NCBI RefSeq assembly: GCF_003334765.1
Contig: NZ_QOWT01000023.1
DNA: 64,000 bases
Direction: 5' to 3' (one strand)
From: Escherichia coli
Lineage (GTDB): Bacteria; Pseudomonadota; Gammaproteobacteria; Enterobacterales; Enterobacteriaceae
Shown here: piece after piece, positions 39,920 through 63,608 of the stretch
How positions within the stretch are numbered: position 1 is the stretch's first letter
How the letters are laid out: every line of letters begins with the position of its first letter
Made by a program: the position numbers and the translations under genes
Notes under the pieces: model-generated
Databases searched by the model: none
What the model was told of the DNA's origin: nothing
The model's input: the letters and a program-made list of their open reading frames with translations, nothing else

Positions 39920-42196
39920 ATGCTCAATCAAGAACTGGAACTCAGTTTAAATATGGCTTTCGCCAGAGCGCGCGAGCACCGTCATGAGTTTATGACCGTC
40001 GAGCACTTGTTACTGGCGCTGCTCAGTAACCCATCTGCCCGGGAGGCGCTGGAAGCGTGTTCTGTGGATTTGGTTGCGCTCCGTCAGGAACTGGAAGCCT
40101 TTATTGAACAAACCACACCCGTTCTGCCTGCCAGTGAAGAGGAGCGCGACACACAGCCGACGCTGAGTTTTCAGCGTGTACTGCAACGTGCGGTCTTCCA
40201 TGTCCAGTCCTCCGGTCGCAATGAGGTTACCGGTGCAAACGTTCTGGTCGCTATCTTTAGCGAACAGGAGTCGCAGGCGGCATATCTGTTGCGTAAACAT
40301 GAAGTCAGCCGTCTCGATGTGGTGAACTTTATCTCTCATGGCACGCGTAAAGACGAGCCGACACAGTCTTCTGATCCTGGCAGCCAGCCAAACAGCGAAG
40401 AACAAGCTGGTGGGGAGGAACGTATGGAGAATTTCACGACGAACCTGAATCAGCTTGCGCGCGTGGGCGGAATCGACCCACTGATTGGTCGTGAGAAGGA
40501 GCTGGAGCGTGCTATTCAGGTTCTCTGCCGTCGCCGTAAAAACAACCCGCTGCTGGTGGGGGAATCTGGTGTCGGTAAAACCGCGATTGCGGAAGGTCTT
40601 GCCTGGCGAATTGTTCAGGGCGATGTGCCGGAAGTGATGGCTGACTGTACGATTTACTCTCTCGATATCGGTTCTCTGTTAGCGGGCACAAAATATCGCG
40701 GCGACTTTGAAAAACGTTTTAAAGCGTTGCTCAAGCAGCTGGAGCAGGACACTAACAGCATCCTGTTTATTGATGAGATCCACACCATTATCGGTGCGGG
40801 TGCAGCGTCTGGTGGTCAGGTCGATGCGGCTAACCTAATCAAACCGTTGCTCTCCAGCGGTAAAATTCGTGTAATTGGTTCGACAACCTATCAGGAGTTC
40901 AGCAACATTTTCGAGAAAGACCGTGCTCTGGCGCGTCGCTTCCAGAAAATTGATATTACTGAACCGTCGATCGAAGAAACTGTTCAAATCATCAATGGCC
41001 TGAAACCGAAGTATGAAGCGCACCACGACGTGCGTTATACCGCAAAAGCGGTGCGTGCGGCGGTAGAGCTGGCGGTGAAATACATTAACGATCGTCATCT
41101 GCCGGATAAAGCCATTGATGTTATCGACGAAGCGGGCGCTCGCGCACGCCTGATGCCGGTAAGCAAACGCAAGAAAACCGTTAATGTGGCGGATATTGAG
41201 TCCGTGGTGGCCCGTATTGCACGCATTCCAGAGAAGAGTGTTTCTCAGAGTGATCGTGATACCCTGAAAAACCTCGGCGATCGCTTGAAAATGCTGGTCT
41301 TCGGTCAGGATAAAGCCATTGAGGCGCTGACTGAAGCCATTAAGATGGCGCGTGCAGGTTTAGGTCACGAACATAAACCGGTTGGTTCGTTCCTGTTTGC
41401 CGGCCCTACCGGGGTCGGGAAAACAGAGGTGACGGTACAGCTTTCGAAAGCTTTGGGCATTGAGCTTCTGCGCTTTGATATGTCCGAGTATATGGAACGC
41501 CATACCGTCAGCCGTCTTATTGGTGCGCCTCCGGGATACGTTGGTTTTGATCAGGGCGGTTTGCTGACTGATGCGGTCATCAAGCATCCACATGCGGTGC
41601 TGCTGCTGGACGAAATCGAGAAAGCGCACCCGGACGTGTTCAATATTCTGTTGCAGGTGATGGATAACGGTACGCTGACCGATAACAACGGACGCAAAGC
41701 AGACTTCCGTAACGTGGTGCTGGTGATGACCACCAACGCCGGGGTACGGGAAACTGAGCGCAAATCCATTGGTCTTATCCACCAGGATAACAGCACCGAT
41801 GCGATGGAAGAGATCAAGAAGATCTTTACACCGGAATTCCGTAACCGTCTCGACAACATTATCTGGTTTGATCATCTGTCAACCGACGTGATCCATCAGG
41901 TGGTGGATAAATTCATCGTCGAGTTGCAGGTTCAGCTGGATCAGAAAGGTGTTTCTCTGGAAGTGAGCCAGGAAGCGCGTAACTGGCTGGCCGAGAAAGG
42001 TTACGACCGGGCAATGGGCGCTCGTCCGATGGCGCGTGTCATCCAGGACAACCTGAAAAAACCGCTCGCCAACGAACTGCTGTTTGGTTCGCTGGTGGAC
42101 GGCGGTCAGGTCACCGTCGCGCTGGATAAAGAGAAAAATGAGCTGACTTACGGATTCCAGAGTGCACAAAAGCACAAGGCGGAAGCAGCGCATTAA
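39920..42196 (+). CDS. clpA: ATP-dependent Clp protease unfoldase subunit
   Basis: 758 aa from the internal [38 protein letters not shown], with two AAA+ modules ([16 protein letters not shown]). Confidence 0.97.
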
Positions 42197-42220
42197 TCTG
42201 ATTGTTAGGTAGGTTGGTCA

Positions 42221-42256
42221 AGTCCGTAATCTCGAAAGAGGTTACGGACTTTTTGT
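42221..42256 (+). terminator. clpA rho-independent terminator
   Basis: AGTCCGTAATCTC-GAAA-GAGGTTACGGACT followed by TTTTTG. Confidence 0.8.
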
Positions 42257-42408
42257 TTATGGGGTGGAGGAGGTTCAGACCCTTTTTTTAATGATGATGG
42301 TAAGTTGTTGATAATTAGTGCTGCGGGAAGGTAAGGATAAAAAAGGGTGCTGCAGGAGAATGGGATGGTTTTGCTTTATTAACAACGGGCTAAACGTGTA
42401 GTATTTGA

Positions 42409-42496
42409 GTTCACTGCCGTACAGGCAGCTTAGAAATTCACAGGTAACATACTCCACCCGCCCACCATGTTCACTGCCGTACAGACAGATAAAATG
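42409..42496 (+). CRISPR. orphan type I-F CRISPR mini-array (2 repeats, 1 spacer), no cas genes in window
   Basis: Repeat 1 is GTTCACTGCCGTACAGGCAGCTTAGAAA (42409-42436), the canonical I-F repeat. The 32-nt spacer is TTCACAGGTAACATACTCCACCCGCCCACCAT (42437-42468). Repeat 2 is GTTCACTGCCGTACAGACAGATAAAATG (42469-42496), degenerate in its 3' half. An AT-rich leader-like stretch lies upstream. Confidence 0.85.
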
Positions 42497-42498
42497 CG

Positions 42499-42528
42499 AA
42501 AAAAAAGCTCGCACTTTCGTACGAGCTC
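42499..42528 (-). terminator. orphaned tRNA-Ser (serW) terminator
   Basis: The minus strand reads AGCTCG-TACGAAAGTG-CGAGCT followed by T8. It lies directly 3' of the tRNA 3' fragment. Confidence 0.6.
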
Positions 42529-42539
42529 TTCTTTAAATA

Positions 42540-42553
42540 TGGCGGTGAGGGGG
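42540..42553 (-). other. 14-nt 3'-terminal fragment of tRNA-Ser(GGA) serW (att-type core/duplication); no tRNA body present
   Basis: TGGCGGTGAGGGGG is the reverse complement of ...CCCCCTCACCGCCA, the acceptor/T-arm 3' end of serW as I recall it. The sequence diverges immediately after it (ACCGCCTGAAATAAATC). Confidence 0.6.
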
Positions 42554-42713
42554 ACCGCCTGAAATAAATCTGACTTAATCCGGGGGTGTTATATAATTTC
42601 ATTATAAACAATGTATTATACTTTTTTCTGTCCGATATTATCTAATGTATTCTTAGTGAAGCGAGAGACTAATGGCATACTGGATGGCATACTAGAGTAA
42701 CAGGAATTAGCGT

Positions 42714-43931
42714 ATGGCAGTTTTGACGGATACTAAAGCAAGGCATATCAAACCTGATGACAAACCATTGCCCCATGGGGGAATTACAGGACTGACTCTT
42801 CATCCTTCTTCAGTAAAAGGGCGGGGTAAATGGGTTTTTCGTTATGTAAGTCCGGTGACACAAAAAAGGCGTAATGCTGGATTGGGAACTTATCCTGAGG
42901 TCAGTATTGCTGAAGCTGCACGTGCTGCCCGGATAATGCGAGAGCAACTTGCTGCAGGTGATGACCCACTGGAGATTAAAAAGGCTGAAGCTGAAAAAGT
43001 TGTTATCCCAACATTTGCCGATGCAGCCAGGCGTGTACATGCTGAATTGTCACCGGGATGGGAAAATCCAAAGCATGTCAGGCAGTGGTTATCGACGCTT
43101 GAAAATTACGCGTTTCCTCAACTGGGAGCAAAAACGCTGGATTCGATTACGGCTGCGGACGTGGCAGAAACACTGCGTCCAGTCTGGTTAACCTTGTCAG
43201 AAACGGCAAGCCGGGTTAAACAGCGCATTCATGTTGTTATGCAGTGGGGATGGGCGCACGGTTTTTGTGTGGCAAACCCTGTTGATGTGGTTGGCCATTT
43301 GCTTCCTCAGCAGACAAGAGGACGTGATGAACACCAACCCGCAATGCCCTGGAGGCAGTTACCGCTTTTTGTGGCGACCAGTGTGTATACAGATGAACCT
43401 TATAATGTTACCCGGGCACTGTTATTAATGGTGATACTTACAGCAACCCGCTCGGGCGAAGCCAGGGGAATGCGCTGGGCTGAAATTGATTTTCATAAGC
43501 GGATATGGACTATACCCGCAGAAAGAATGAAAGCCAGGATACAGCATCGTGTTCCTTTATCCCGGCAGGCCATTCACATTCTGGAAAATATACGTGGTTT
43601 GCATGATGAACTAGTGTTTCCTTCTCCCAGAAAGCAGCAGATCCTTTCAGATATGGTGTTGACGAGTTTTCTGCGTAAAAAGAAAGCCATCAGTGATATA
43701 CCGGGGCGAGTTGCCACGGCACATGGTTTTCGCTCAACATTCAGGGACTGGTGTAGTGAACAGGGGTATTCGCGGGATCTGGCGGAAAGGGCGCTCGCTC
43801 ATACGCTGAAAAATAAGGTTGAGGCGGCATATCATCGTACTGATCTACTGGAGCAGCGTGTACCGATGATGCAGGCATGGGCGGATTATGTGATGTCTCA
43901 ACTTGCTAAAAACACTAAGGAATTCGCTTAG
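42714..43931 (+). CDS. P4-family tyrosine integrase (DUF4102 arm-binding N-terminus)
   Basis: 405-aa ORF. The N-terminus is MAVLTDTKARHIKPDDKPLPHGGITGLTLHPSSVKGRGKWVFRY. Catalytic residues are in context: ATRSGEARGMRW (R), HGFRSTFRDW (HxxR), LAHTLKNKVEAAYHRTD (H...Y). Confidence 0.92.
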   Translation: MAVLTDTKARHIKPDDKPLPHGGITGLTLHPSSVKGRGKWVFRYVSPVTQKRRNAGLGTYPEVSIAEAARAARIMREQLAAGDDPLEIKKAEAEKVVIPTFADAARRVHAELSPGWENPKHVRQWLSTLENYAFPQLGAKTLDSITAADVAETLRPVWLTLSETASRVKQRIHVVMQWGWAHGFCVANPVDVVGHLLPQQTRGRDEHQPAMPWRQLPLFVATSVYTDEPYNVTRALLLMVILTATRSGEARGMRWAEIDFHKRIWTIPAERMKARIQHRVPLSRQAIHILENIRGLHDELVFPSPRKQQILSDMVLTSFLRKKKAISDIPGRVATAHGFRSTFRDWCSEQGYSRDLAERALAHTLKNKVEAAYHRTDLLEQRVPMMQAWADYVMSQLAKNTKEFA

Positions 43932-44100: not shown

Positions 44101-45630
44101 CTATAGTCTGTTTCGGTGATACTTCAGTATGTTTTGATGATCACAAATGAAAACTCCGGCATCGAATGCAGGAATATTTAGTTTTTTTGCCAGTTCGGAT
44201 GGTGTAATCGTGTTTCCTATATAAACAACCAGGTTATCATCAATCCTTATTTTCCTTTGTTCCGCCAGTATGTCAAGTGCTTCATCCAGAACACATTTTT
44301 TCCTGAGAGCATATGGGGCATATTGTAAAATATAACTTTTCTGGAATATGTAACCTGCTGTTGTGATAATTCTTTTCTGAAGCCATTTATCAAGTTTCTC
44401 AGCCGGGGATATTTCCCGAAGGGATTCAAGTTTATATATAAGATGCTTGAAATAAAATTCAATGAGATAAATGGCGCTATTAGTACTTTCCAGCGTTATT
44501 ACTGTCGAGTCTGGATCTTTCTCCAGTTCCAGAAGTGCTGCTATCCTGACAACCTGCTCTCTTTTTCTGACAATAATGTCTTCAAAAGTACCCATATGAG
44601 GATTCTGTCTGACAGTATCCATATTTTCTTTGTGAAAGCGCTCCAGTGCGCGGGATGCTGCATTTGATAATGTCATGCAGATGCGCTCTTTACTTTTTGC
44701 ACGTCTTTCTCTGGATGCTCTCAGAGAGTCTCTGATCTGACTGCCAAAACTTTTCTTACGAAAACAGCTTGCACATTGTTGCGTCACAACAGGAATGGCA
44801 GTATGCGGTTCTGTCGTCATTATTTTAATTGCTCCGGGTTCGCAAAATAGCAACCGGGCCAGAAAGCCATTGCCCCGGATCTGATCGCCAGTGAGAGTAA
44901 AAAACTTATTAAATATTACCGGTTGAGTCAGTATAAGTATAGTGAGACGGACATCATTCAGCCGGAATCCGGGTCTGGATGCTCGTTCAACGTTGACGGG
45001 TTGCCCACTCCATAATGTGTTGTACAGTGCCGATTTGCGTTCGAAACGCTTATCCAGAATAGTACCTCCTTCGTCAGACAGCAACAGAAGAGAGGGGGAC
45101 TGGCTGAGTTTCAAAGCTATCCCTTCTGGTGTCGCGTCATTAACGATGAGAACCTGTTGTGTGGGAGGTACGGGTTTATTTGCTATACACTTTTCAAGTG
45201 CTGCTCGTGCAGCAGCAGCATTTTCCGGGGATCTTTCCATTTCCTTTTTATATCTCCGCTCCAGTATTTTTTTATCTGTTGTCCACATCTCCATCATTCG
45301 GTCATAGTTTTTCTTATCGTCGATATATGCCTGATGTAGTTCTTCTTCTGTTTCATGAACAGGAGCGATTAATTTTGCACAGGCAGAGGTTTTTCCACTG
45401 CCTGATGCTGATGAAAGACACATAAATATCTGAAGGCTGGTACGCTGTCCTCCGGAAAGTTCAACTTCATGCGTATCCTGGACTGAGGCAGCCTTGACCG
45501 TCAGCATAACAGACAGCAGTATTTCACGGCTTATTCCCGTTTCTTCATGCATTTCATTAAGTAATGCCTGGCTCCTGTCAGGCAGTTTAGTTATGTCAAG
45601 TTCAGGGAGTGATAGTTTTGTCGTCATCAT
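44101..45630 (-). CDS. YfjI-like DUF3987 protein (putative P-loop helicase/replication protein)
   Basis: 509-aa ORF with Walker A-like SSASGSGKTS and Walker B-like LLLLSDEGG. It sits downstream of alpA and overlaps it, as in CP4-57 alpA-yfjI. Confidence 0.65.
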   Translation of the reverse strand: MMTTKLSLPELDITKLPDRSQALLNEMHEETGISREILLSVMLTVKAASVQDTHEVELSGGQRTSLQIFMCLSSASGSGKTSACAKLIAPVHETEEELHQAYIDDKKNYDRMMEMWTTDKKILERRYKKEMERSPENAAAARAALEKCIANKPVPPTQQVLIVNDATPEGIALKLSQSPSLLLLSDEGGTILDKRFERKSALYNTLWSGQPVNVERASRPGFRLNDVRLTILILTQPVIFNKFFTLTGDQIRGNGFLARLLFCEPGAIKIMTTEPHTAIPVVTQQCASCFRKKSFGSQIRDSLRASRERRAKSKERICMTLSNAASRALERFHKENMDTVRQNPHMGTFEDIIVRKREQVVRIAALLELEKDPDSTVITLESTNSAIYLIEFYFKHLIYKLESLREISPAEKLDKWLQKRIITTAGYIFQKSYILQYAPYALRKKCVLDEALDILAEQRKIRIDDNLVVYIGNTITPSELAKKLNIPAFDAGVFICDHQNILKYHRNRL

Positions 45631-45889
45631 TAAGTTCCTTTTGTTTGTTTTCAGGTTCAGACCAGGCTGGTGCCGTATGTAACGTCAGCCACTCATCGAT
45701 GGCAGATGCCCGCCAGCCAACGGATGCACTTCCAAGCCTTATCGGTTTGGGAAAGGTAGGGTCGTGGTATTTCGAGGCCGGATTTATTTTCACGTAAATC
45801 GTGGACCTGGATATACCCAGCAGCCGGGTAAGTTCAGCCATACGCAGGATGCGTGAAGGTGTGTCAAGCTGTCCGGTTTGATTTGACAT
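45602..45889 (-). CDS. alpA: AlpA-family (MerR-type HTH) excision/transcription regulator
   Basis: ILRMAELTRLLGISRSTIYVKINPASKYHDPTFPKPIRLGSASVGWRASAIDEWL is the AlpA/Phage_AlpA signature. The start is chosen at the ATG preceded by GGAGA (M7 of the ORF). The 3' end overlaps the next gene by 29 bp. Confidence 0.85.
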   Translation of the reverse strand: MSNQTGQLDTPSRILRMAELTRLLGISRSTIYVKINPASKYHDPTFPKPIRLGSASVGWRASAIDEWLTLHTAPAWSEPENKQKELNDDDKTITP

Positions 45890-45962
45890 ATTGTTCTCCA
45901 TATGCATTGCACGTTGTGGTATCAGTTTGATAGCTTAAGGTCGGAATGTCCCCTGCGATAAA

Positions 45963-47825
45963 ATGCAAACCAACCGGAGAGCACAGCATATGCGCACATT
46001 TACAAATCTGTTGTATGATATTTGTACTGTTCTGGGGTTGTTCAGGGAAGGCGAGAACCCGGCACACAAGCGGAAGAGCACTAATTTCGAAATGCATCAA
46101 AAATTCTGGGATCAACGTTACAATGCGATCAGTCGTATTATTGATGCTGAAGGGGTGTATAGTCAGGAGCAACGGCGGATCATATATGCCCGGTATGAAC
46201 ATTTTTATTACATGATGAATTCTTATCCAGTTCATTCCACACTAAAATCTGAATTCCTTCGCAGCTATTGTCTGCGCACTTTTGGGGTTATTTTTCTTGT
46301 TGTAGATATTTATAATACATACAGACCAGAGAATGACTCTGCTTTTTATTATCATATTTATAATTTTTTACAGAAGTCGTATTGTCCTTGTCTTGATCAC
46401 TCTGATACAGAAAGCGATGAAGCTGCTGTTAAACGTTATCTTCGGGAATATCTGGCAGAACTGGGATTCAACAAGGAAGATTTTCATGAAAATGGAAAGT
46501 TGTATGCTCTGGGGAAATATACAGGAACTATTCGGAGGGATAACGGGAAAAGCAAGAGTCTGATGAAACAATATATCATGTCTATCAAAAATGAATATAA
46601 AAAGGATTATCGGGAGAAGAAACTGGATAAGGATGAACTGGAGAAATTACTCAGGAATATTGATAAATTCTATAATGCATTTTATTCATTAAGTGTCTTA
46701 CTTGATATACAACGAAAGACGAAGATACTTCAAAGCCTTGCATATTATCTCAGAGTGTTGGTGAGAAAGGGGCTCTGGACTCATGGTTTATATGGTTACG
46801 CTGAGCAATATCTTTATGACTTTACCAGCTTGGATACAACGCCTTATGCAAAAAAATTACTGGAAATGTTTTATAAGTTTGAAAACAGTGCAGAAGGGAC
46901 ATTGGCTCGTTATAATGTATCACTTGATGATAAATCTCAGGAATATATTGCCCGTCTGAAAGATCTTGTATTTAATATTAATGAGAAGAATGGTTGTGAT
47001 GACGCATATCTGAAAATGATTATAAGTCATTTTGGGCAGTTGCAGAATGAGGCTGTTCATGTGACCAGCTGCTACGGAACACTTGCGGTGTACATTTGTC
47101 TGATAAGGAAAAATAAAATTAATGATGTGCTGCATCATTATGATGACATGGAAAGAAAAGGATTGTTTGCTGAATTACCTTCAGGATATATCAGGGGGGC
47201 ATTATCGTTGCTTCGGACAGCACTGGAGGTTAAAGTAAATAGAAAAAATATAAAGTATGGCTCGTTGTTTTATTGGCTTGACCATGTAAAAGCTCATCAG
47301 GATGCATTTATTGAATCAATACCACTTATTGATCCTGTATATAAGGAGGGTGAAATACAGTATGATGCGAACAATTTTACCCTGATGCGTGTTATTAAGA
47401 TGTATAATTGTATGCTTGAAAAGATCAGTACGAAACCATATATAGCTCCCCCATATATTACAGGTTTGCTTGATGACGTAGAGAAGGTGCTGGATAAGAT
47501 AAATATTCTGATAGATAAAGAGTATGTTTATGATGGTAAGACACTGGCTGAAGTCATTATAGAGAACAAAGTATTATCCAGTCGCGAGCGTAAAGATACT
47601 ATGATAGGGCTTTTCACAGGCAGTAAGAAATATACTTTACTGCAATGTGTTGAGAAGCTTGGTGTATTAGTTCACTACGTGAAATCACCGGTCGATGAAA
47701 TTAAAAATGTGATGATGTTGTATGGCGATAAGGCCGAAAACAGGAACAGACGCAGAATGATATATGATGCGTTAACCATTATTTGTGAGGATGATAACAG
47801 GGCTAAACACCCTGATCTGTCGTGA
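45963..47825 (+). CDS. hypothetical protein, AT-rich orphan (620 aa; likely start at 45990 preceded by GGAG)
   Basis: Long uninterrupted ORF in very AT-rich DNA, divergent from alpA. It is rich in K/Y/N/E/L and probably all-helical. I recognise no catalytic motif. Confidence 0.7.
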   Translation: MQTNRRAQHMRTFTNLLYDICTVLGLFREGENPAHKRKSTNFEMHQKFWDQRYNAISRIIDAEGVYSQEQRRIIYARYEHFYYMMNSYPVHSTLKSEFLRSYCLRTFGVIFLVVDIYNTYRPENDSAFYYHIYNFLQKSYCPCLDHSDTESDEAAVKRYLREYLAELGFNKEDFHENGKLYALGKYTGTIRRDNGKSKSLMKQYIMSIKNEYKKDYREKKLDKDELEKLLRNIDKFYNAFYSLSVLLDIQRKTKILQSLAYYLRVLVRKGLWTHGLYGYAEQYLYDFTSLDTTPYAKKLLEMFYKFENSAEGTLARYNVSLDDKSQEYIARLKDLVFNINEKNGCDDAYLKMIISHFGQLQNEAVHVTSCYGTLAVYICLIRKNKINDVLHHYDDMERKGLFAELPSGYIRGALSLLRTALEVKVNRKNIKYGSLFYWLDHVKAHQDAFIESIPLIDPVYKEGEIQYDANNFTLMRVIKMYNCMLEKISTKPYIAPPYITGLLDDVEKVLDKINILIDKEYVYDGKTLAEVIIENKVLSSRERKDTMIGLFTGSKKYTLLQCVEKLGVLVHYVKSPVDEIKNVMMLYGDKAENRNRRRMIYDALTIICEDDNRAKHPDLS

Positions 47826-49200: not shown

Positions 49201-49764
49201 ATGTATAATGCCAATCCCAATTACAAAATGGATTTCATGATTCTGAAAGACGTGAATGAACACATGGATGGTATGTTTCAACGTTTTTCTAAACTGTTAC
49301 CTTTCAGAATTGATTTTGCTTACAGGAAAGACACGCCCAGTTTCGGTCATTCCTGTAAGCACAGTATGTGTATGGAAATATACCGTTTACTTTGCGAAAC
49401 CCAGACGATGTTGGCGGGATATTACTGGGTAATGGAATATACACCAGACAAAGGGCTTCATATTCATTTTGTCGGCTACCTGGATGGGCAACGTCACAAG
49501 AACTCTTATCAGATATCCAGGCAACTGGGAGATATCTGGAGGCGGATCACGGAAGGGGAGGGTTACTTTCACCTTTGCCGGGCTAAAGACAAATACCCGG
49601 TGCGTATCGATCACGTGATGCACTATAGTGATAAGTCCGCGGTAGACAACTTACGTTACGCCCTTAGCTATCTGGCTAAACAGGATCAGAAAGAACACGG
49701 TATTATTCTGGGCCGTAGCAGGCTTCCCGAAAAAAGCAACCGGGGCCGACCACGACATAACTGA
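49201..49764 (+). CDS. YfjJ/YagK-type (inovirus Gp2-like) protein with HUH-type motif
   Basis: 187-aa ORF. It shares the family pattern of K-12 YfjJ as I recall it: FRIDFAY (RVDLHF), YYWVMEYTPDKGLHIHFVGYLDG (YIWVREF...HYHMILLLN), and LSYLAKQDQK (ASYLAKEKTK). HIH forms an HUH triad. Confidence 0.7.
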   Translation: MYNANPNYKMDFMILKDVNEHMDGMFQRFSKLLPFRIDFAYRKDTPSFGHSCKHSMCMEIYRLLCETQTMLAGYYWVMEYTPDKGLHIHFVGYLDGQRHKNSYQISRQLGDIWRRITEGEGYFHLCRAKDKYPVRIDHVMHYSDKSAVDNLRYALSYLAKQDQKEHGIILGRSRLPEKSNRGRPRHN

Positions 49765-49840: not shown

Positions 49841-52279
49841 GTGGGGCGCTTTGTCATCAGTGTAGGGGACCCGAATTTCTGCCGTGGTGCCTCAGTGGAT
49901 CGGATACAGGTAACGAATATGGTTCATAAATCTGACAGTGATGAATTAGCTGCATTGAGGGCAGAAAATGCCCGTCTGGTCTCATTACTTGAAGCTCATG
50001 GGATTGAATGGCGACGTAAACCGCCGATCTCTGTGCAGCGCGTTTCTGTATTATCCACCAATGAGAAGGTTGCATTATTTCGTCGGTTGTTTCGCGGGCG
50101 TGATGATGTATGGGCACTTAGATGGGAAAGTAAAACCAGCGGCAAATCAGGGTACTCTCCTGCCTGCGCTAACGAATGGCAGGCGAGAATATGCGGTAAG
50201 CCCCGGATAAAATGTGGGGACTGCGCTCACCGTCAGTTGATTCCTGTATCTGATCTCGTCATCTACTACCATCTGGCAGGTACCCATACTGCCGGGATGT
50301 ATCCGTTGCTGGAAGATGATTCCTGTTATTTTCTGGCTGTTGATTTTGATGAAGCTGAATGGCAGAAGGATGCATCCGCATTCATGCGATCCTGTGATGA
50401 GCTGGGTGTACCCGCTGCGCTGGAAATATCCCGTTCACGTCAGGGAGCGCATGTCTGGATATTTTTTGCTTCACGAGTTTCGGCCCGCGAAGCTCGCCGT
50501 CTGGGGACTGCTATTATTAGTTATACGTGTAATCGAACTCGACAGCTGCGATTGGGTTCTTATGACCGATTATTTCCTAATCAGGATACGATGCCAAAAG
50601 GGGGATTTGGTAATCTCATAGCATTACCTCTGCAAAAAAGACCGCGTGAATCGGGGGGAAGTGTTTTTGTTGATATGAATTTCCAGCCTTATTCTGATCA
50701 ATGGGCTTTTCTTGCATCGGTGATCCCGATGAATGTGCAGAATATTGAACCGACGATATTACGGGCTACAGGAAGTATCCATCCTCTGGATGTGAACTTT
50801 ATCAACGAAGAAGACCTGGGTACGCCATGGGAAGGGAAAAAATCATCAGGAAACAGACTGAATATTTCTATTGCAGAACCGCTGAAAATCACGCTGGCAA
50901 ACCAGATCTATTTCGAAAAAGCGCAATTACCTCAGGTGCTGATTAACCGACTTATTCGGCTGGCAGCATTTCCGAACCCTGAGTTTTATAAGGCTCAGGC
51001 AATGCGTATGTCAGTCTGGAATAAGCCCCGTGTTATAGGTTGTGCGGAGAATTACCCGCAACACATTGCGTTGCCCCAGGGATGTCTGGACAGCGTATTA
51101 TCTTTCCTTAGGGACAACAATATTGCTGCAGAATTAATCGATAAACGATTTGTCGGGACGGAATGTAATGCCGTTTTTATGGGAAACCTCAGAGCGGAGC
51201 AGGAAGAGGCCGTTTCGGCATTACTCCGTTATGACACTGGTGTGCTTTGTGCGCCAACGGCTTTTGGTAAGACAGTTACCGCAGCGGCAGTGATTGCCAG
51301 ACGGAAAGTGAATACACTGATACTGGTACACCGGACTGAATTGCTGAAGCAGTGGCAGGAGCGTCTCGAGGTGTTTCTGCAGGTTGGTGACAATATTGGT
51401 ATTATCGGGGGAGGTAAACATAAACCCTGTGGCAATATTGATATTGCGGTGGTGCAGTCCATATCCAGACACGGAGAAGTTGAACCTCTGGTCAGGAATT
51501 ATGGGCAAATCATTGTGGATGAGTGCCATCATATTGGCGCGGTTTCATTTTCTGCGATTCTGAAGGAAACGAATGCCAGATATCTGCTTGGCCTGACGGC
51601 AACACCAATCCGACGGGATGGTCTGCATCCCATTATTTTTATGTACTGTGGTGCCATTCGCCATACAGCGGTCCGCCCGAAGGAAAGCCCACATAATCTG
51701 GAGGTACTGACCCGTTCCCGTTTTACATCTGGTCATTTACCATCGGATGCGAGAATCCAGGATATTTTCAGAGAAATTGCTCTGGATCATGACAGAACGG
51801 TGGCGATAGCTGAAGAAGCCATGAAAGCTTTCGGGCAGGGGCGAAAAGTTCTGGTACTGACTGAACGTACAGATCATCTGGATGAGATAGCATCAGTGAT
51901 GAATTCACTGAAATTGTCCCCCTTTATTCTCCATGGACGACTATCGAAAAAAAAGCGTGCGATGCTGATATCCGGGCTGAATGCTCTTCCTCCTGATTCT
52001 CCCCGTATTTTGTTGTCAACAGGCAGACTTATTGGTGAGGGATTTGACCACCCTCCGCTGGATACGCTGATTCTTGCCATGCCTGTGTCATGGAAAGGGA
52101 CATTACAGCAGTATGCGGGACGTCTACACAGAGAGCATACCGGTAAAAGCGATGTCAGGATCATTGATTTTGTGGATACCGCGTATCCAGTGCTGCTCAG
52201 AATGTGGGATAAACGCCAGCGGGGTTATAAGGCGATGGGGTACAGGATTGTGGCTGATGGTGAAGGGCTTTCATTTTAA
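49841..52279 (+). CDS. archaeo-eukaryotic primase (AEP/PrimPol)-like domain fused to DEAD/DEAH-box SF2 helicase (probable start ATG 49919)
   Basis: The N-terminal half has AEP-like motifs: FLAVDFDE (DxD, 50342-50350), SRQGAHVWIFF (sGxH), and YDRLFPNQD...GGFGNLIALPL. The C-terminal half has Walker A APTAFGKTV, motif II IIVDECHH (51514-51531), LGLTATP, and motif VI QYAGRLHR. Confidence 0.8.
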   Translation: MGRFVISVGDPNFCRGASVDRIQVTNMVHKSDSDELAALRAENARLVSLLEAHGIEWRRKPPISVQRVSVLSTNEKVALFRRLFRGRDDVWALRWESKTSGKSGYSPACANEWQARICGKPRIKCGDCAHRQLIPVSDLVIYYHLAGTHTAGMYPLLEDDSCYFLAVDFDEAEWQKDASAFMRSCDELGVPAALEISRSRQGAHVWIFFASRVSAREARRLGTAIISYTCNRTRQLRLGSYDRLFPNQDTMPKGGFGNLIALPLQKRPRESGGSVFVDMNFQPYSDQWAFLASVIPMNVQNIEPTILRATGSIHPLDVNFINEEDLGTPWEGKKSSGNRLNISIAEPLKITLANQIYFEKAQLPQVLINRLIRLAAFPNPEFYKAQAMRMSVWNKPRVIGCAENYPQHIALPQGCLDSVLSFLRDNNIAAELIDKRFVGTECNAVFMGNLRAEQEEAVSALLRYDTGVLCAPTAFGKTVTAAAVIARRKVNTLILVHRTELLKQWQERLEVFLQVGDNIGIIGGGKHKPCGNIDIAVVQSISRHGEVEPLVRNYGQIIVDECHHIGAVSFSAILKETNARYLLGLTATPIRRDGLHPIIFMYCGAIRHTAVRPKESPHNLEVLTRSRFTSGHLPSDARIQDIFREIALDHDRTVAIAEEAMKAFGQGRKVLVLTERTDHLDEIASVMNSLKLSPFILHGRLSKKKRAMLISGLNALPPDSPRILLSTGRLIGEGFDHPPLDTLILAMPVSWKGTLQQYAGRLHREHTGKSDVRIIDFVDTAYPVLLRMWDKRQRGYKAMGYRIVADGEGLSF

Positions 52280-59516: not shown

Positions 59517-62500
59517 ATGAATAAAATATACGCGCTTAAATATAGCTCCCTTACTGGTGGGCTTATAGCTGTGTCAGAATTAAGTAAGAAGGTCACAGGA
59601 AAAACCGGCAGAAGATTAATGACGGTTTCCCTGGTATTATCAGTGACTCTTTCTGCTTTACCGGGTAAAGCATCAACGGTCAGCGCAGAAATACCATATC
59701 AGACTTTTCGTGACTTTGCTGAAAATAAAGGTGTGTTTACCCCCGGAGTGACAGGAATTGAAATAAACGACAACAATGGAAATAAAGTTGGGGTTCTTGA
59801 TGTTCCCATGCTTGATTTTTCCAGTCTTTCTCGTGATGGTCATACCACATTGATTCATCCTGGTTATGTTGTATCGGCTAAACATAGTGGTTTACAAAGT
59901 GTTTCATCAGCAACTTTTGGTTATGACCAGATATATAAAATAGTTGATAATAATCTTGCTGGTATAGATTTTTCTGCCCCACGATTAAATAAGCTTGTTA
60001 CAGAAGTAATTCCCGCAGATATACAGGGAAAGGATAAATTTAATAATAACCGTTATACGGCTTTTTACCGTGCGGGCGTTGGCTCTCAATATATCCGTTA
60101 TGCAAATGGCACAGATAAACTACTGCAGGCTTACACTCCAGACAAGGCTTATCTGACCGGCGGAACAGTGGGAAAACCTTATTATACTCACTATAACGGT
60201 ATGAAGATGATTTCAGCAAACCCGGGAAATACCTTTGATAAAAACCAGGGACCTCTTGCCAGTTATGGACAGATTGGAGACAGTGGTTCGCCGTTATATG
60301 CCTGGGATAACATTGACAAAAAATGGGTATTAACTGGAGTTACTCTGCATAATTATGGAGTAAAAGGTGCACGAAATGACTGGCTCCTGATACCTCATGA
60401 CTTTATCAGTCAAAAATTACAGGATGACCTTAAACCAATTATTGTTGCTTCTCCGGAGGAGAATATCTTACGCTGGGAATTTGATCGTTCCAGAGGTACA
60501 GGTACTCTCAGTCAGGGAGAGAAGATTTTTTCCATGACTGGTAGTGTAAACGGAAATGCAAATACCGGGAACAATCTTGTGTTCTCAGGTAATGAAGGGA
60601 AAATCGAACTGGTATCCAGTGTGGAGCAGGGAGCCGGATATCTTCAGTTTGATAAAGACTACACTGTACTGACAAATAATAACAGTACATGGACTGGTGC
60701 CGGAATTATTGTCGGTGACGAGGCAAATGTCAAATGGGGAGTTAATGGCATTGCCGGTGATTATCTGCATAAAGTTGGTTCCGGGACATTAACTGTTAAT
60801 GGTCATGGTGAGAATAAAGGTGGCCTTAAAGTTGGGGACGGCGTTGTTGTTCTTGAGCAACAGCCAGATGCAAACCAGAAACAACAGGCGTTTAGCCATA
60901 TCAATATAGCCAGTGGTCGGGCAACAGTTAAACTTAACGGGGCAAACCAGGTAGATGCAGATAATATCAGTTGGGGATATCGGGGTGGGAAACTGGATTT
61001 AAATGGGTATGATTTTACCTTTTCCCGTCTTCAGGCTGCAGATTATGGTGCTGAAATCAGCAACGATAATCAGACAGATAAATCCATAGTCACACTTTCG
61101 TTATCTCCTCTGAAAGCAGAAGAAATAAATGTGGTTGTTAATAATATAAATATAATGGGGGGGGCAGGCAAACCAGGTGATCTGTATTATACGACCTTTG
61201 ACGGAAATTATTATCTGTTGAAAAGTAACCGATATGGCAGCGCTTTGTTTGGCGCGCTGAATAATCAGAGCGAATGGCAAAGGCTGGGTAAGAATAAAGA
61301 AAAAGCAATTGGGTTATATACACAGATGAAAATGCAGGAAAGCGATCTTTTATCATATATATATCATGGAAAAATAACCGGTAATACCAGTGTGGAAATA
61401 CCCAAACTGGCAGGCAATGATATTTTAACGCTTGATGGCTCTGTCAGTATATCAGGAGATATGTCAAAACAGGACGGTGCTCTTATCTTCCAGGGACACC
61501 CGGTTATTCATGCAGGGCAAACTGTTTCTGCATCGCAGAGTGACTGGGAGAACAGGGAGTTCTCACTCAACAATCTGAATCTTAATAATGCGGACTTCAG
61601 TCTGTCCCGTAATGCATTTATGAACGGGAATATCAGGGCCGTTAACCAGAGCACTGTTATTATCGGCGGAGATACAGTCTTTACTGATAAAAATGACGGA
61701 ACAGGTAATGATGTCATCAGTGTTGAAGGGAAATCTGCTGCCGCAGGAACATCCTCCTATACAGGGCATATCACTCTGGAGCAAAAATCAGCACTGGATA
61801 TCCGCGATAATTTTCGTGGCGGGGTTACGTCTGAAGACAGTCATATCAATGTTTCTTCATCTTCAGTCTTGTTCTCAGATGCATCGTCATTTATAAACAG
61901 CTCCCTGAATATTCATAAAGGAGGTGCGCTGACCGCTCAGGGAGGGCTGTTTACAAGTGGAAGCATTGATATTGGTGACGCTTCCCTTCTGCTTACCGGT
62001 ACACCAGTGAATTCAGATGATGCTGCTTTTTTACCGACCATCAATATGGCTGATGGCGGATTTAAACTGATGTCTGATTCATCAGTACTGAAAGCCAGAG
62101 ACCAGGCATCTGTTGTTGGTGATATTATTTCTGATAAACAGGCCACAATCAGCTTCGGAACTGAATCAGGTAAAGAGGGCATATTGTCTGAGAAGGCATC
62201 CCGGGGACTCGCGGTAGGATTACTGAGTGGTTTTAATACGGCATACCGCGGTGCAATTCATGCCCCGTCAGCATCTGCCACTATGAACAACACCTGGTGG
62301 CAACTGACAGGAGACTCCTCACTTCGCTCGTTAAAAAATACCGGAAGCATGACATATTTTACAGGAAGTGCAGCGAATAAAGCATTCCATACACTGACGG
62401 TTGATGAGCTGACGACGAATGGCACTGCGTATGCCATGCGTACGGACCTGAAAAATGCGGATAAGCTGGTAGTAAACCAAAAGCTGTCAGGTAAGGATAA

Positions 62501-63608
62501 TATTCTGCTGGTTGATTTTCTGAACAAACCCACCGGAGAAAAACTGGATATTGAACTGGTGAGTGCACCGGGGAACAGCAGTAAGGATGTTTTTAAAGGA
62601 AGTGAACAGGCAATAGGTTTCAGCAATGTCACACCTGTTATTACAGCTATAGACGCCGGAGATAAAACAACATGGAACCTGACCGGGTACAGGATGGCAG
62701 AAAATCCTGCCGCAACCCAAAGTGCCTCAGGCCTTGCATCTGTGGGGTACAAATCATTTTTGAGTGAGGTCAACAACCTGAATAAACGTATGGGTGACCT
62801 GCGTGACATCAATGGTGAAGCTGGCGCATGGGCACGTATCATGAGCGGAACCGGCTCTGCCGGTGGTGGTTTCAGTGACAACCACACACATGTTCAGGTC
62901 GGTGTCGACAAAAAACATGAGCTGGACGGACTGGATTTGTTTACCGGCTTCACTGTCACACACACTGACAGCAGTGCCTCCGCCGATGCTTTCAAAGGTA
63001 AAACAAAATCTGTGGGGGCCGGACTCTATGCTTCCGCCATGTTTGATTCCGGTGCCTATATCGACCTGATTGGTAAGTATGTTCATCATGATAATGAGTA
63101 CACCGCAACCTTTGCCGGACTCGGAACCCGTAATTACAGTACGCATTCATGGTATGCCGGTGCTGAAGCAGGCTACCGCTGTCATGTCACTGAGGATACC
63201 TGGATTGAGCCACAGGCAGAACTGGTCTACGGTGCTGTATCCGGTAAACAGTTTGCATGGAAGGACCAGGGGATGCATCTGTCCATGAAGGACAGGGACT
63301 ACAATCCGCTGATTGGTCGTACCGGTGTGGATGTGGGTAAATCCTTCTCAGGTAAGGACTGGAAAGTGACAGCCCGTGCCGGTCTGGGCTACCAGTTCGA
63401 CCTGCTGGCTAACGGCGAAACCGTATTGCGGGACGCATCTGGTGAAAAACGCATCAAAGGTGAAAAGGACAGCCGTATGCTGATGTCCGTTGGCCTGAAT
63501 GCAGAAATCAGGGATAACGTCCGCTTTGGACTGGAGTTTGAGAAATCCGCCTTTGGTAAGTACAACGTTGATAATGCTGTCAACGCTAACTTCCGTTACT
63601 CGTTCTGA
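59517..63608 (+). CDS. SPATE serine protease autotransporter (class-2, Pic/SepA/EspI-like)
   Basis: 1363 aa. It has the extended signal peptide MNKIYALKYSSLTGGLIAVSELSKKV and catalytic contexts VVSAKHSG, IDFSAPRLNKLVTEV and GDSGSPLYAW (Ser codon 60282-60284). The passenger/beta cleavage motif is FLSEVNNLNKRMGDLRD (about 62760-62810). The C-terminal beta-barrel ends NANFRYSF. Confidence 0.93.
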   Translation: MNKIYALKYSSLTGGLIAVSELSKKVTGKTGRRLMTVSLVLSVTLSALPGKASTVSAEIPYQTFRDFAENKGVFTPGVTGIEINDNNGNKVGVLDVPMLDFSSLSRDGHTTLIHPGYVVSAKHSGLQSVSSATFGYDQIYKIVDNNLAGIDFSAPRLNKLVTEVIPADIQGKDKFNNNRYTAFYRAGVGSQYIRYANGTDKLLQAYTPDKAYLTGGTVGKPYYTHYNGMKMISANPGNTFDKNQGPLASYGQIGDSGSPLYAWDNIDKKWVLTGVTLHNYGVKGARNDWLLIPHDFISQKLQDDLKPIIVASPEENILRWEFDRSRGTGTLSQGEKIFSMTGSVNGNANTGNNLVFSGNEGKIELVSSVEQGAGYLQFDKDYTVLTNNNSTWTGAGIIVGDEANVKWGVNGIAGDYLHKVGSGTLTVNGHGENKGGLKVGDGVVVLEQQPDANQKQQAFSHINIASGRATVKLNGANQVDADNISWGYRGGKLDLNGYDFTFSRLQAADYGAEISNDNQTDKSIVTLSLSPLKAEEINVVVNNINIMGGAGKPGDLYYTTFDGNYYLLKSNRYGSALFGALNNQSEWQRLGKNKEKAIGLYTQMKMQESDLLSYIYHGKITGNTSVEIPKLAGNDILTLDGSVSISGDMSKQDGALIFQGHPVIHAGQTVSASQSDWENREFSLNNLNLNNADFSLSRNAFMNGNIRAVNQSTVIIGGDTVFTDKNDGTGNDVISVEGKSAAAGTSSYTGHITLEQKSALDIRDNFRGGVTSEDSHINVSSSSVLFSDASSFINSSLNIHKGGALTAQGGLFTSGSIDIGDASLLLTGTPVNSDDAAFLPTINMADGGFKLMSDSSVLKARDQASVVGDIISDKQATISFGTESGKEGILSEKASRGLAVGLLSGFNTAYRGAIHAPSASATMNNTWWQLTGDSSLRSLKNTGSMTYFTGSAANKAFHTLTVDELTTNGTAYAMRTDLKNADKLVVNQKLSGKDNILLVDFLNKPTGEKLDIELVSAPGNSSKDVFKGSEQAIGFSNVTPVITAIDAGDKTTWNLTGYRMAENPAATQSASGLASVGYKSFLSEVNNLNKRMGDLRDINGEAGAWARIMSGTGSAGGGFSDNHTHVQVGVDKKHELDGLDLFTGFTVTHTDSSASADAFKGKTKSVGAGLYASAMFDSGAYIDLIGKYVHHDNEYTATFAGLGTRNYSTHSWYAGAEAGYRCHVTEDTWIEPQAELVYGAVSGKQFAWKDQGMHLSMKDRDYNPLIGRTGVDVGKSFSGKDWKVTARAGLGYQFDLLANGETVLRDASGEKRIKGEKDSRMLMSVGLNAEIRDNVRFGLEFEKSAFGKYNVDNAVNANFRYSF

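Follow-up and report, generated by a model that had tools for sequence, protein, structure and literature searches.

The closest described systems are the genomic islands OI-43 and OI-48 of Escherichia coli O157:H7 EDL933 and the SRL-PAI of Shigella. Both OI-43 and OI-48 lie between perfect 14-bp direct repeats, TGGCGGTGAGGGGG, that correspond to the final 14 bp of serW and serX and are reported to be identical to those of the SRL-PAI (Bielaszewska et al. 2011, PMC3064760). [quoted passage not shown] Both islands excise precisely, at ~1e-3 to 1e-4 per cell (one measured value being 1.8e-3), and both the islands and their flanks are also known to undergo partial deletion (PMC3064760). The SRL-PAI Int is described in two reports as mediating integration at serX and serW (PMC2297512, PMC7545054), and serX is an identical paralogue of serW (PMC2297512). 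For the integrase genes themselves, int of OI-43/48 has been reported to be 15 bp shorter than int of SRL-PAI.

Here we compare this family with a junction located in a 64-kb window (i.e., the whole stretch of E. coli DNA that was analyzed, 64,000 nucleotides), at which a sequence-only reading had described an anomalous arrangement, with serW reduced to a 14-nt 3' fragment and a P4-type integrase lying beside that fragment. With high confidence, we interpret this junction as the ordinary, published integrase-proximal end of an SRL-PAI/OI-43/OI-48 serW/serX island, formed by site-specific insertion into the serW 3' end. Two of the features that place an element in this family are found here, namely a boundary at TGGCGGTGAGGGGG and the family-specific integrase next to it. 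The junction type is already known, and an integrase beside the fragment is the norm in the SRL-PAI/OI-43/OI-48 family. The comparative genomes, EDL933 and the published description (PMC3064760) all present this arrangement as an ordinary integrase-proximal end, and the suggestion of an anomaly falls away on these grounds.

On the chromosomal side, an alignment showed positions 42180–42553 of the window to be base-for-base identical to the clpA–serW spacer of E. coli K-12 MG1655, a 374-bp perfect match that takes in the end of clpA, the serW terminator, and the final 14 nt of serW, which is a tRNA-Ser(GGA) gene annotated at NC_000913 925884–925971 in K-12. These 14 nt (42540–42553) lie on the minus strand and read CCCCCTCACCGCCA on the tRNA strand. 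The corresponding plus-strand sequence TGGCGGTGAGGGGG matches the 3'-terminal 14 nt of K-12 serW in reverse complement and occurs as a single copy in the 64-kb window. It represents the chromosomal copy of the 14-bp direct repeat of the island, i.e., the identity block common to attB and attP. From position 42554 onward the two sequences diverge fully, K-12 reading GGATTCGAACCCCC (the tRNA body) and the window ACCGCCTGAAATAAATC; the G+C content drops from ~0.52 before the junction to 0.36–0.48 after it, and foreign DNA continues to the window end. No tRNA genes were detected by ARAGORN across the 64-kb window. Hence, the core observations of the sequence-only reading were sound: the 374-bp K-12 identity bears out a 14-nt serW 3' fragment with its native terminator at the junction, a check against the K-12 reference confirms that the 14-mer does correspond to the serW 3' end, and both the abrupt switch to island DNA (at 42554) and the P4-type integrase 160 bp further on (at 42714, supported by Pfam) were recovered.

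The native intrinsic terminator of serW (42499–42534, minus strand) is K-12-identical and was recognized in a terminator scan by its hairpin and T-run; the island now splits it from the tRNA body. Rfam matches to MicC and Thr_leader in the same region (42490–42582) scored far under the gathering scores and were rejected as reflecting merely the terminator hairpin. Of the 14 nt of serW left at this junction, 3 nt belong to the T-stem and 7 nt to the acceptor stem, and the remainder is the discriminator base plus CCA. The identity block stays within the acceptor-stem 3' strand/CCA side and reaches neither the T-loop nor the anticodon loop, which places this integration in the 3'-terminal sublocation of a three-sublocation scheme for integration in tRNA genes reportedly introduced by Williams in 2002. 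Separately, an orphan CRISPR remnant, also K-12-identical, was observed between clpA and the serW terminator (42409–42496), with one good repeat (42409–42436, matching Rfam CRISPR-DR4 at 50 bits), a 32-bp spacer, and a degenerate repeat (42469–42496). We take it to be the known type I-F-associated array remnant of the clpA–infA locus.

On the island side, the integrase gene (42714–43931, plus strand) starts exactly 160 bp past the serW fragment and reads into the island, so the geometry given in the sequence-only reading, with the integrase beside the fragment and transcribed into the island, was right. Its 405-aa product was assigned from Pfam and sequence identities as a P4-type tyrosine integrase of the SRL-PAI/OI-43 type, with Arm-DNA-bind_3 (PF13356), Phage_int_M (PF22022), and Phage_integrase (PF00589) domains all above the gathering score, along with a match to NF007246 below the cut-off of that model. 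The predicted catalytic residues R246, H337, R340, H363, and Y373, assigned by motif reading, are present and invariant in the integrase alignment. At the amino acid level, this integrase is identical to the one of NCTC9082 (100%) and nearly so to those of EC2 (99.3%) and EDL933 OI-43 (97.3%); a 405-aa S. flexneri protein that falls in the same 90% cluster matches it at 98% identity. Identity to the K-12 P4-type integrases is far lower (IntA 35%, IntB 31%, IntS 26%).

The layout itself differs from that of several K-12 elements which share the integrase family and domain architecture of the window, as well as a core at most a few hundred bp upstream of int. In CP4-57 (ssrA–intA), PR-Y (leuX–intB), and CPS-53 (argW–intS), the intact tRNA is followed by a colinear int, whereas in the window int lies beside the fragment and the core is antisense to int; the usual P4-type arrangement, with int directly 3' of an intact tRNA and colinear with it, is thus not the one found here. 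The sequence-only reading had treated this arrangement as the P4 standard, which is accurate for the K-12 pairs ssrA→intA, leuX→intB, and argW→intS but does not extend to SRL-PAI/OI-43/OI-48 or to CP4-6, and an integrase 3' of an intact tRNA is a family habit, not a criterion of membership. CP4-6 of K-12, inserted at thrW, has the same geometry as the window, with the intact tRNA at one end by a toxin-antitoxin/RadC/antirestriction module and, at the opposite end, intF starting 110 bp from a displaced thrW 3' fragment and reading into the element. The thrW fragment is 49 bp long (L010 35207–35255) and extends back into the anticodon arm, versus 14 bp at the extreme 3' end for serW in the window. 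IntF was considered as a relative that might explain the shared geometry, and was rejected since its BLASTP match was marginal and restricted to the catalytic domain. The CP4-6 geometry is a parallel and does not amount to evidence of homology.

The resemblance to OI-43 of EDL933, also at serW, extends well beyond the integrase. Both loci share the clpA/island/serW–infA site, the terminator, the 14-mer, the ACCGCCTGAAATAAATC arm, the 160 bp separating the core from int, both copies of ATGGCATAC, and, close to the head, genes for a Gp2-like protein and an AEP-TOTE primase. They differ in that the OI-43 integrase is 400 aa long versus 405 aa in the window, that the junction DNA (from the clpA end to the int start) is 93.5% identical, and that the window carries espI and IS remnants instead of the OI-43 head genes. 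OI-43/OI-48 is the tellurite-resistance/adherence island of EDL933, corresponding to SpLE1 in Sakai. For the Shigella SRL-PAI, the link runs through the literature and through the Shigella protein in the same 90% cluster: the direct repeats are reported as identical, and the 405-aa length of the window integrase, compared with the 400-aa OI-43/48 form, fits the published 15-bp difference in int length. The SRL-PAI cargo (the resistance locus and fec) is absent from the part of the island that lies within the window.

The island body (42554–64000) continues past the window end and includes a Gp2-like gene, an AEP-TOTE primase-helicase, IS remnants, and an espI autotransporter. Next to the integrase lie two minus-strand genes, one for a DUF3987 (YfjI-like) protein of the P4-like core module (44101–45630; Pfam PF13148, E = 1.6e-62) and one for an AlpA-family HTH protein with an uncertain start codon (45602–45907; Pfam Phage_AlpA, E = 1.6e-17), annotated as an HTH regulator in relatives and a candidate excisionase or recombination directionality factor. 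CP4-57 carries the same pairing of AlpA and DUF3987 as the window island. Further in, a 620-aa ORF (45963–47825, plus strand; start at 45990 in relatives) sits in the stretch of the island with the lowest G+C content (~0.36), is without a Pfam domain, and is labeled “hypothetical protein” in all relatives. Beyond it lies a plus-strand gene (49201–49764) without a Pfam match, which the annotation of relatives gives as inovirus-type Gp2, and then by a gene for an 812-aa protein (49841–52279, plus strand) combining an AEP-TOTE archaeo-eukaryotic primase domain with a ResIII/DEAD helicase. This Gp2 and primase pair is kept near the head of SRL-PAI/OI-43/OI-48 islands, including OI-43 of EDL933, in which the primase gene is frameshifted. 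The autotransporter gene (59517–63608, plus strand), named espI in relatives, encodes a full-length serine protease with Peptidase_S6 and Autotransporter domains, and is surrounded by IS3, IS1, IS200, and IS66 remnants.

Next, we evaluated how widespread each end of the island is. Across 5,426 complete E. coli genomes, the left junction (clpA–fragment–integrase) was found in 275 and the right junction (island end, whole serW, and infA flank) in 282, the latter being counted as genomes that cover the island end–serW–infA query at ≥80%. None of the complete E. coli genomes was identical to the window; the best match reached 99.6% for the junction and 99.8% for the island. A species-representative collection with one genome per species yielded no match to a 35-mer across the junction, and a 20-mer scan of the same collection matched only seven unrelated GC-rich MAGs; no enterobacterial representative in that collection carries the junction.

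Three relatives were walked from end to end, two with the island at serW (EC2 and AF58) and one with the island at serX (NCTC9082), and an intact tRNA-Ser(GGA) was found at the island far end in all three, behind an island-supplied terminator and with infA or ghrA next. In EC2, the junction is 99.6% identical to that of the window and the island spans ~90 kb before ending at an intact tRNA-Ser(GGA) by infA; in AF58, the island head is 98.1% identical and the island, ~49 kb long, has the same ending. In NCTC9082, the integrase side is flanked by ycdU, and an intact serX lies by ghrA at the far end. The three far ends are near-identical to one another and follow the same order: the end of a DUF4942 gene, two copies of ATGGCATAC, an intrinsic terminator, TGGCGGTGAGGGGG, and the tRNA body. 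The second copy of the 14-nt core, which the sequence-only reading had proposed to look for, was thereby located in these relatives. The far-end island terminator is strong and directly follows the supplied 14 bp (L004 31838–31920; L009 27840–27924). Taken together, these relatives indicate that the far end of the island, beyond the window, should have an intact serW beside infA. Deeper in the island, relatives that share this head carry iha, aerobactin genes, and Ag43-type autotransporter genes as well. Over 21.5 kb, the same island head was observed at serW in the window and, with an unchanged geometry, at serX in both NCTC9082 (99.8% nucleotide identity) and 20AR0300 (99.5%), which suggests recent movement between the two identical tRNA-Ser genes or independent capture by them.

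To describe the attachment site, attP was reconstructed from the far end of a relative placed next to the near end of the window, and the attP details given here are those of that reconstruction. At the core, GGCGGT-GAGGGGG-ACCGCC (42541–42559; read from the sequence and also present in EDL933) forms a perfect 6-bp inverted repeat that has a 7-bp spacer and spans the chromosome/island boundary, and GGCGGT/ACCGCC are putative core-type integrase sites bordering the crossover (overlap) region. Between the core and int, the island arm (42554–42713, plus strand) is marked by repeats and a promoter-like site: it contains two direct copies of ATGGCATAC (42672–42680 and 42684–42692), one TGTCCGATA (42629–42637), and the promoter-like site at 42570–42597, and may correspond to a P' arm with arm-type integrase sites and the int promoter. 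The ATGGCATAC motif has three occurrences in the whole window, two of them being this adjacent pair (42672–42692). The pair is conserved in EDL933, and both the pair and the single TGTCCGATA recur at the far end of relatives. Each arm of the reconstructed attP thus has two direct ATGGCATAC copies 12 bp apart and one TGTCCGATA, and one additional ATGGCATAC copy is present in inverted orientation. Core- and arm-type sites would be expected in this layout for a tyrosine integrase that has an arm-binding domain.

In the mechanism that we propose, the tyrosine recombinase would join attP and attB through the shared 14 bp, TGGCGGTGAGGGGG. Crossover probably occurs within the 7-bp GAGGGGG, between the inverted GGCGGT/ACCGCC, because the attB identity stops exactly at the right edge of GAGGGGG. 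The attP core lies ~160 bp upstream of int and is oriented antisense to it. Such a core, inverted relative to int when compared with CP4-57-like elements, would leave int beside the displaced 3' fragment and the old terminator. At the other end, the tRNA body would be re-completed by the island copy of the 14 bp and receive a new island terminator, so that serW would not be destroyed and, since the far end of the island brings its own terminator, would swap terminators on integration. The far end here would then read ...GCGCATGTTAAACAATAACATGCGCTTATAATC-TGGCGGTGAGGGGG, followed by an intact tRNA-Ser(GGA) directly upstream of infA. Excision and integration by Int between the direct repeats are reported in the literature for OI-43/48 and SRL-PAI; the window shows an intact int ORF with the predicted catalytic residues.

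The sequence-only reading had left three alternatives for the arrangement, i.e., an intact serW at the distal end, an inversion or tandem-island history, or outright loss of the tRNA body. The first of these is supported, as an intact tRNA gene occupies the distal end in all walked relatives and the counts of the two junctions are similar (282 vs 275); inversion, tandem history, and tRNA loss, and with them the description of serW as reduced to a 14-nt fragment, are unsupported by comparative genomes and the literature. A true deletion of the serW body in this strain, leaving a 14-nt stub and reliance on the identical paralogue serX, is highly improbable. The window, which ends inside the island, includes no tRNA, serX is identical and could compensate (PMC2297512), and partial deletions of such islands and flanks are on record (PMC3064760). 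However, the break falls exactly at the published direct repeat boundary with the attP-arm sequence and int intact, the tRNA is kept in 3/3 walked relatives, and genomes with a right junction that includes an intact serW are no fewer than those with a left junction. More broadly, it is very unlikely that the distal end in this strain is abnormal, whether through deletion of the serW body and part of the island or through a second element in tandem, with serX alone serving.

We also considered whether the layout could be secondary, resulting either from inversion of an island whose int was originally by the tRNA or from a tandem or composite of two elements. An IS-rich mosaic island makes rearrangement plausible in principle, and int is by the tRNA in most of the familiar P4-type islands; yet the same int–fragment junction is found at both serW and serX, in distant island variants of 48–90 kb, and in EDL933, and an inversion would have left inverted repeats where the two copies are direct. 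In addition, the far end has matching arm-type repeats and its own tRNA terminator, which implies that the whole attP is built for an orientation with int beside the fragment, and we judge a secondary layout to be extremely unlikely. Finally, the 14-mer could be a chance match at a junction unrelated to serW, since it is only 14 nt long, 14-mers recur in large data, and even a 20-mer matched unrelated GC-rich MAGs. But this 14-mer terminates the 374-bp perfect match to the K-12 clpA–serW region, terminator included, and is unique in the window, and the match refutes this option. An ordinary integrase-proximal end of an SRL-PAI/OI-43/OI-48 island is the reading that we retain.

Overall, the significance of this junction goes little beyond correct annotation. 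“Integrase by intact tRNA” describes many P4-type islands without being a rule, and island-finding heuristics should therefore accept an integrase beside a tRNA fragment, as seen in SRL-PAI/OI-43/48 and in CP4-6 of K-12. In this strain, a mobile virulence/fitness island with espI in its visible part has one of its ends at this junction, and islands of the SRL-PAI/OI-43/OI-48 type are able to excise and to insert at either of the two identical tRNA-Ser genes.
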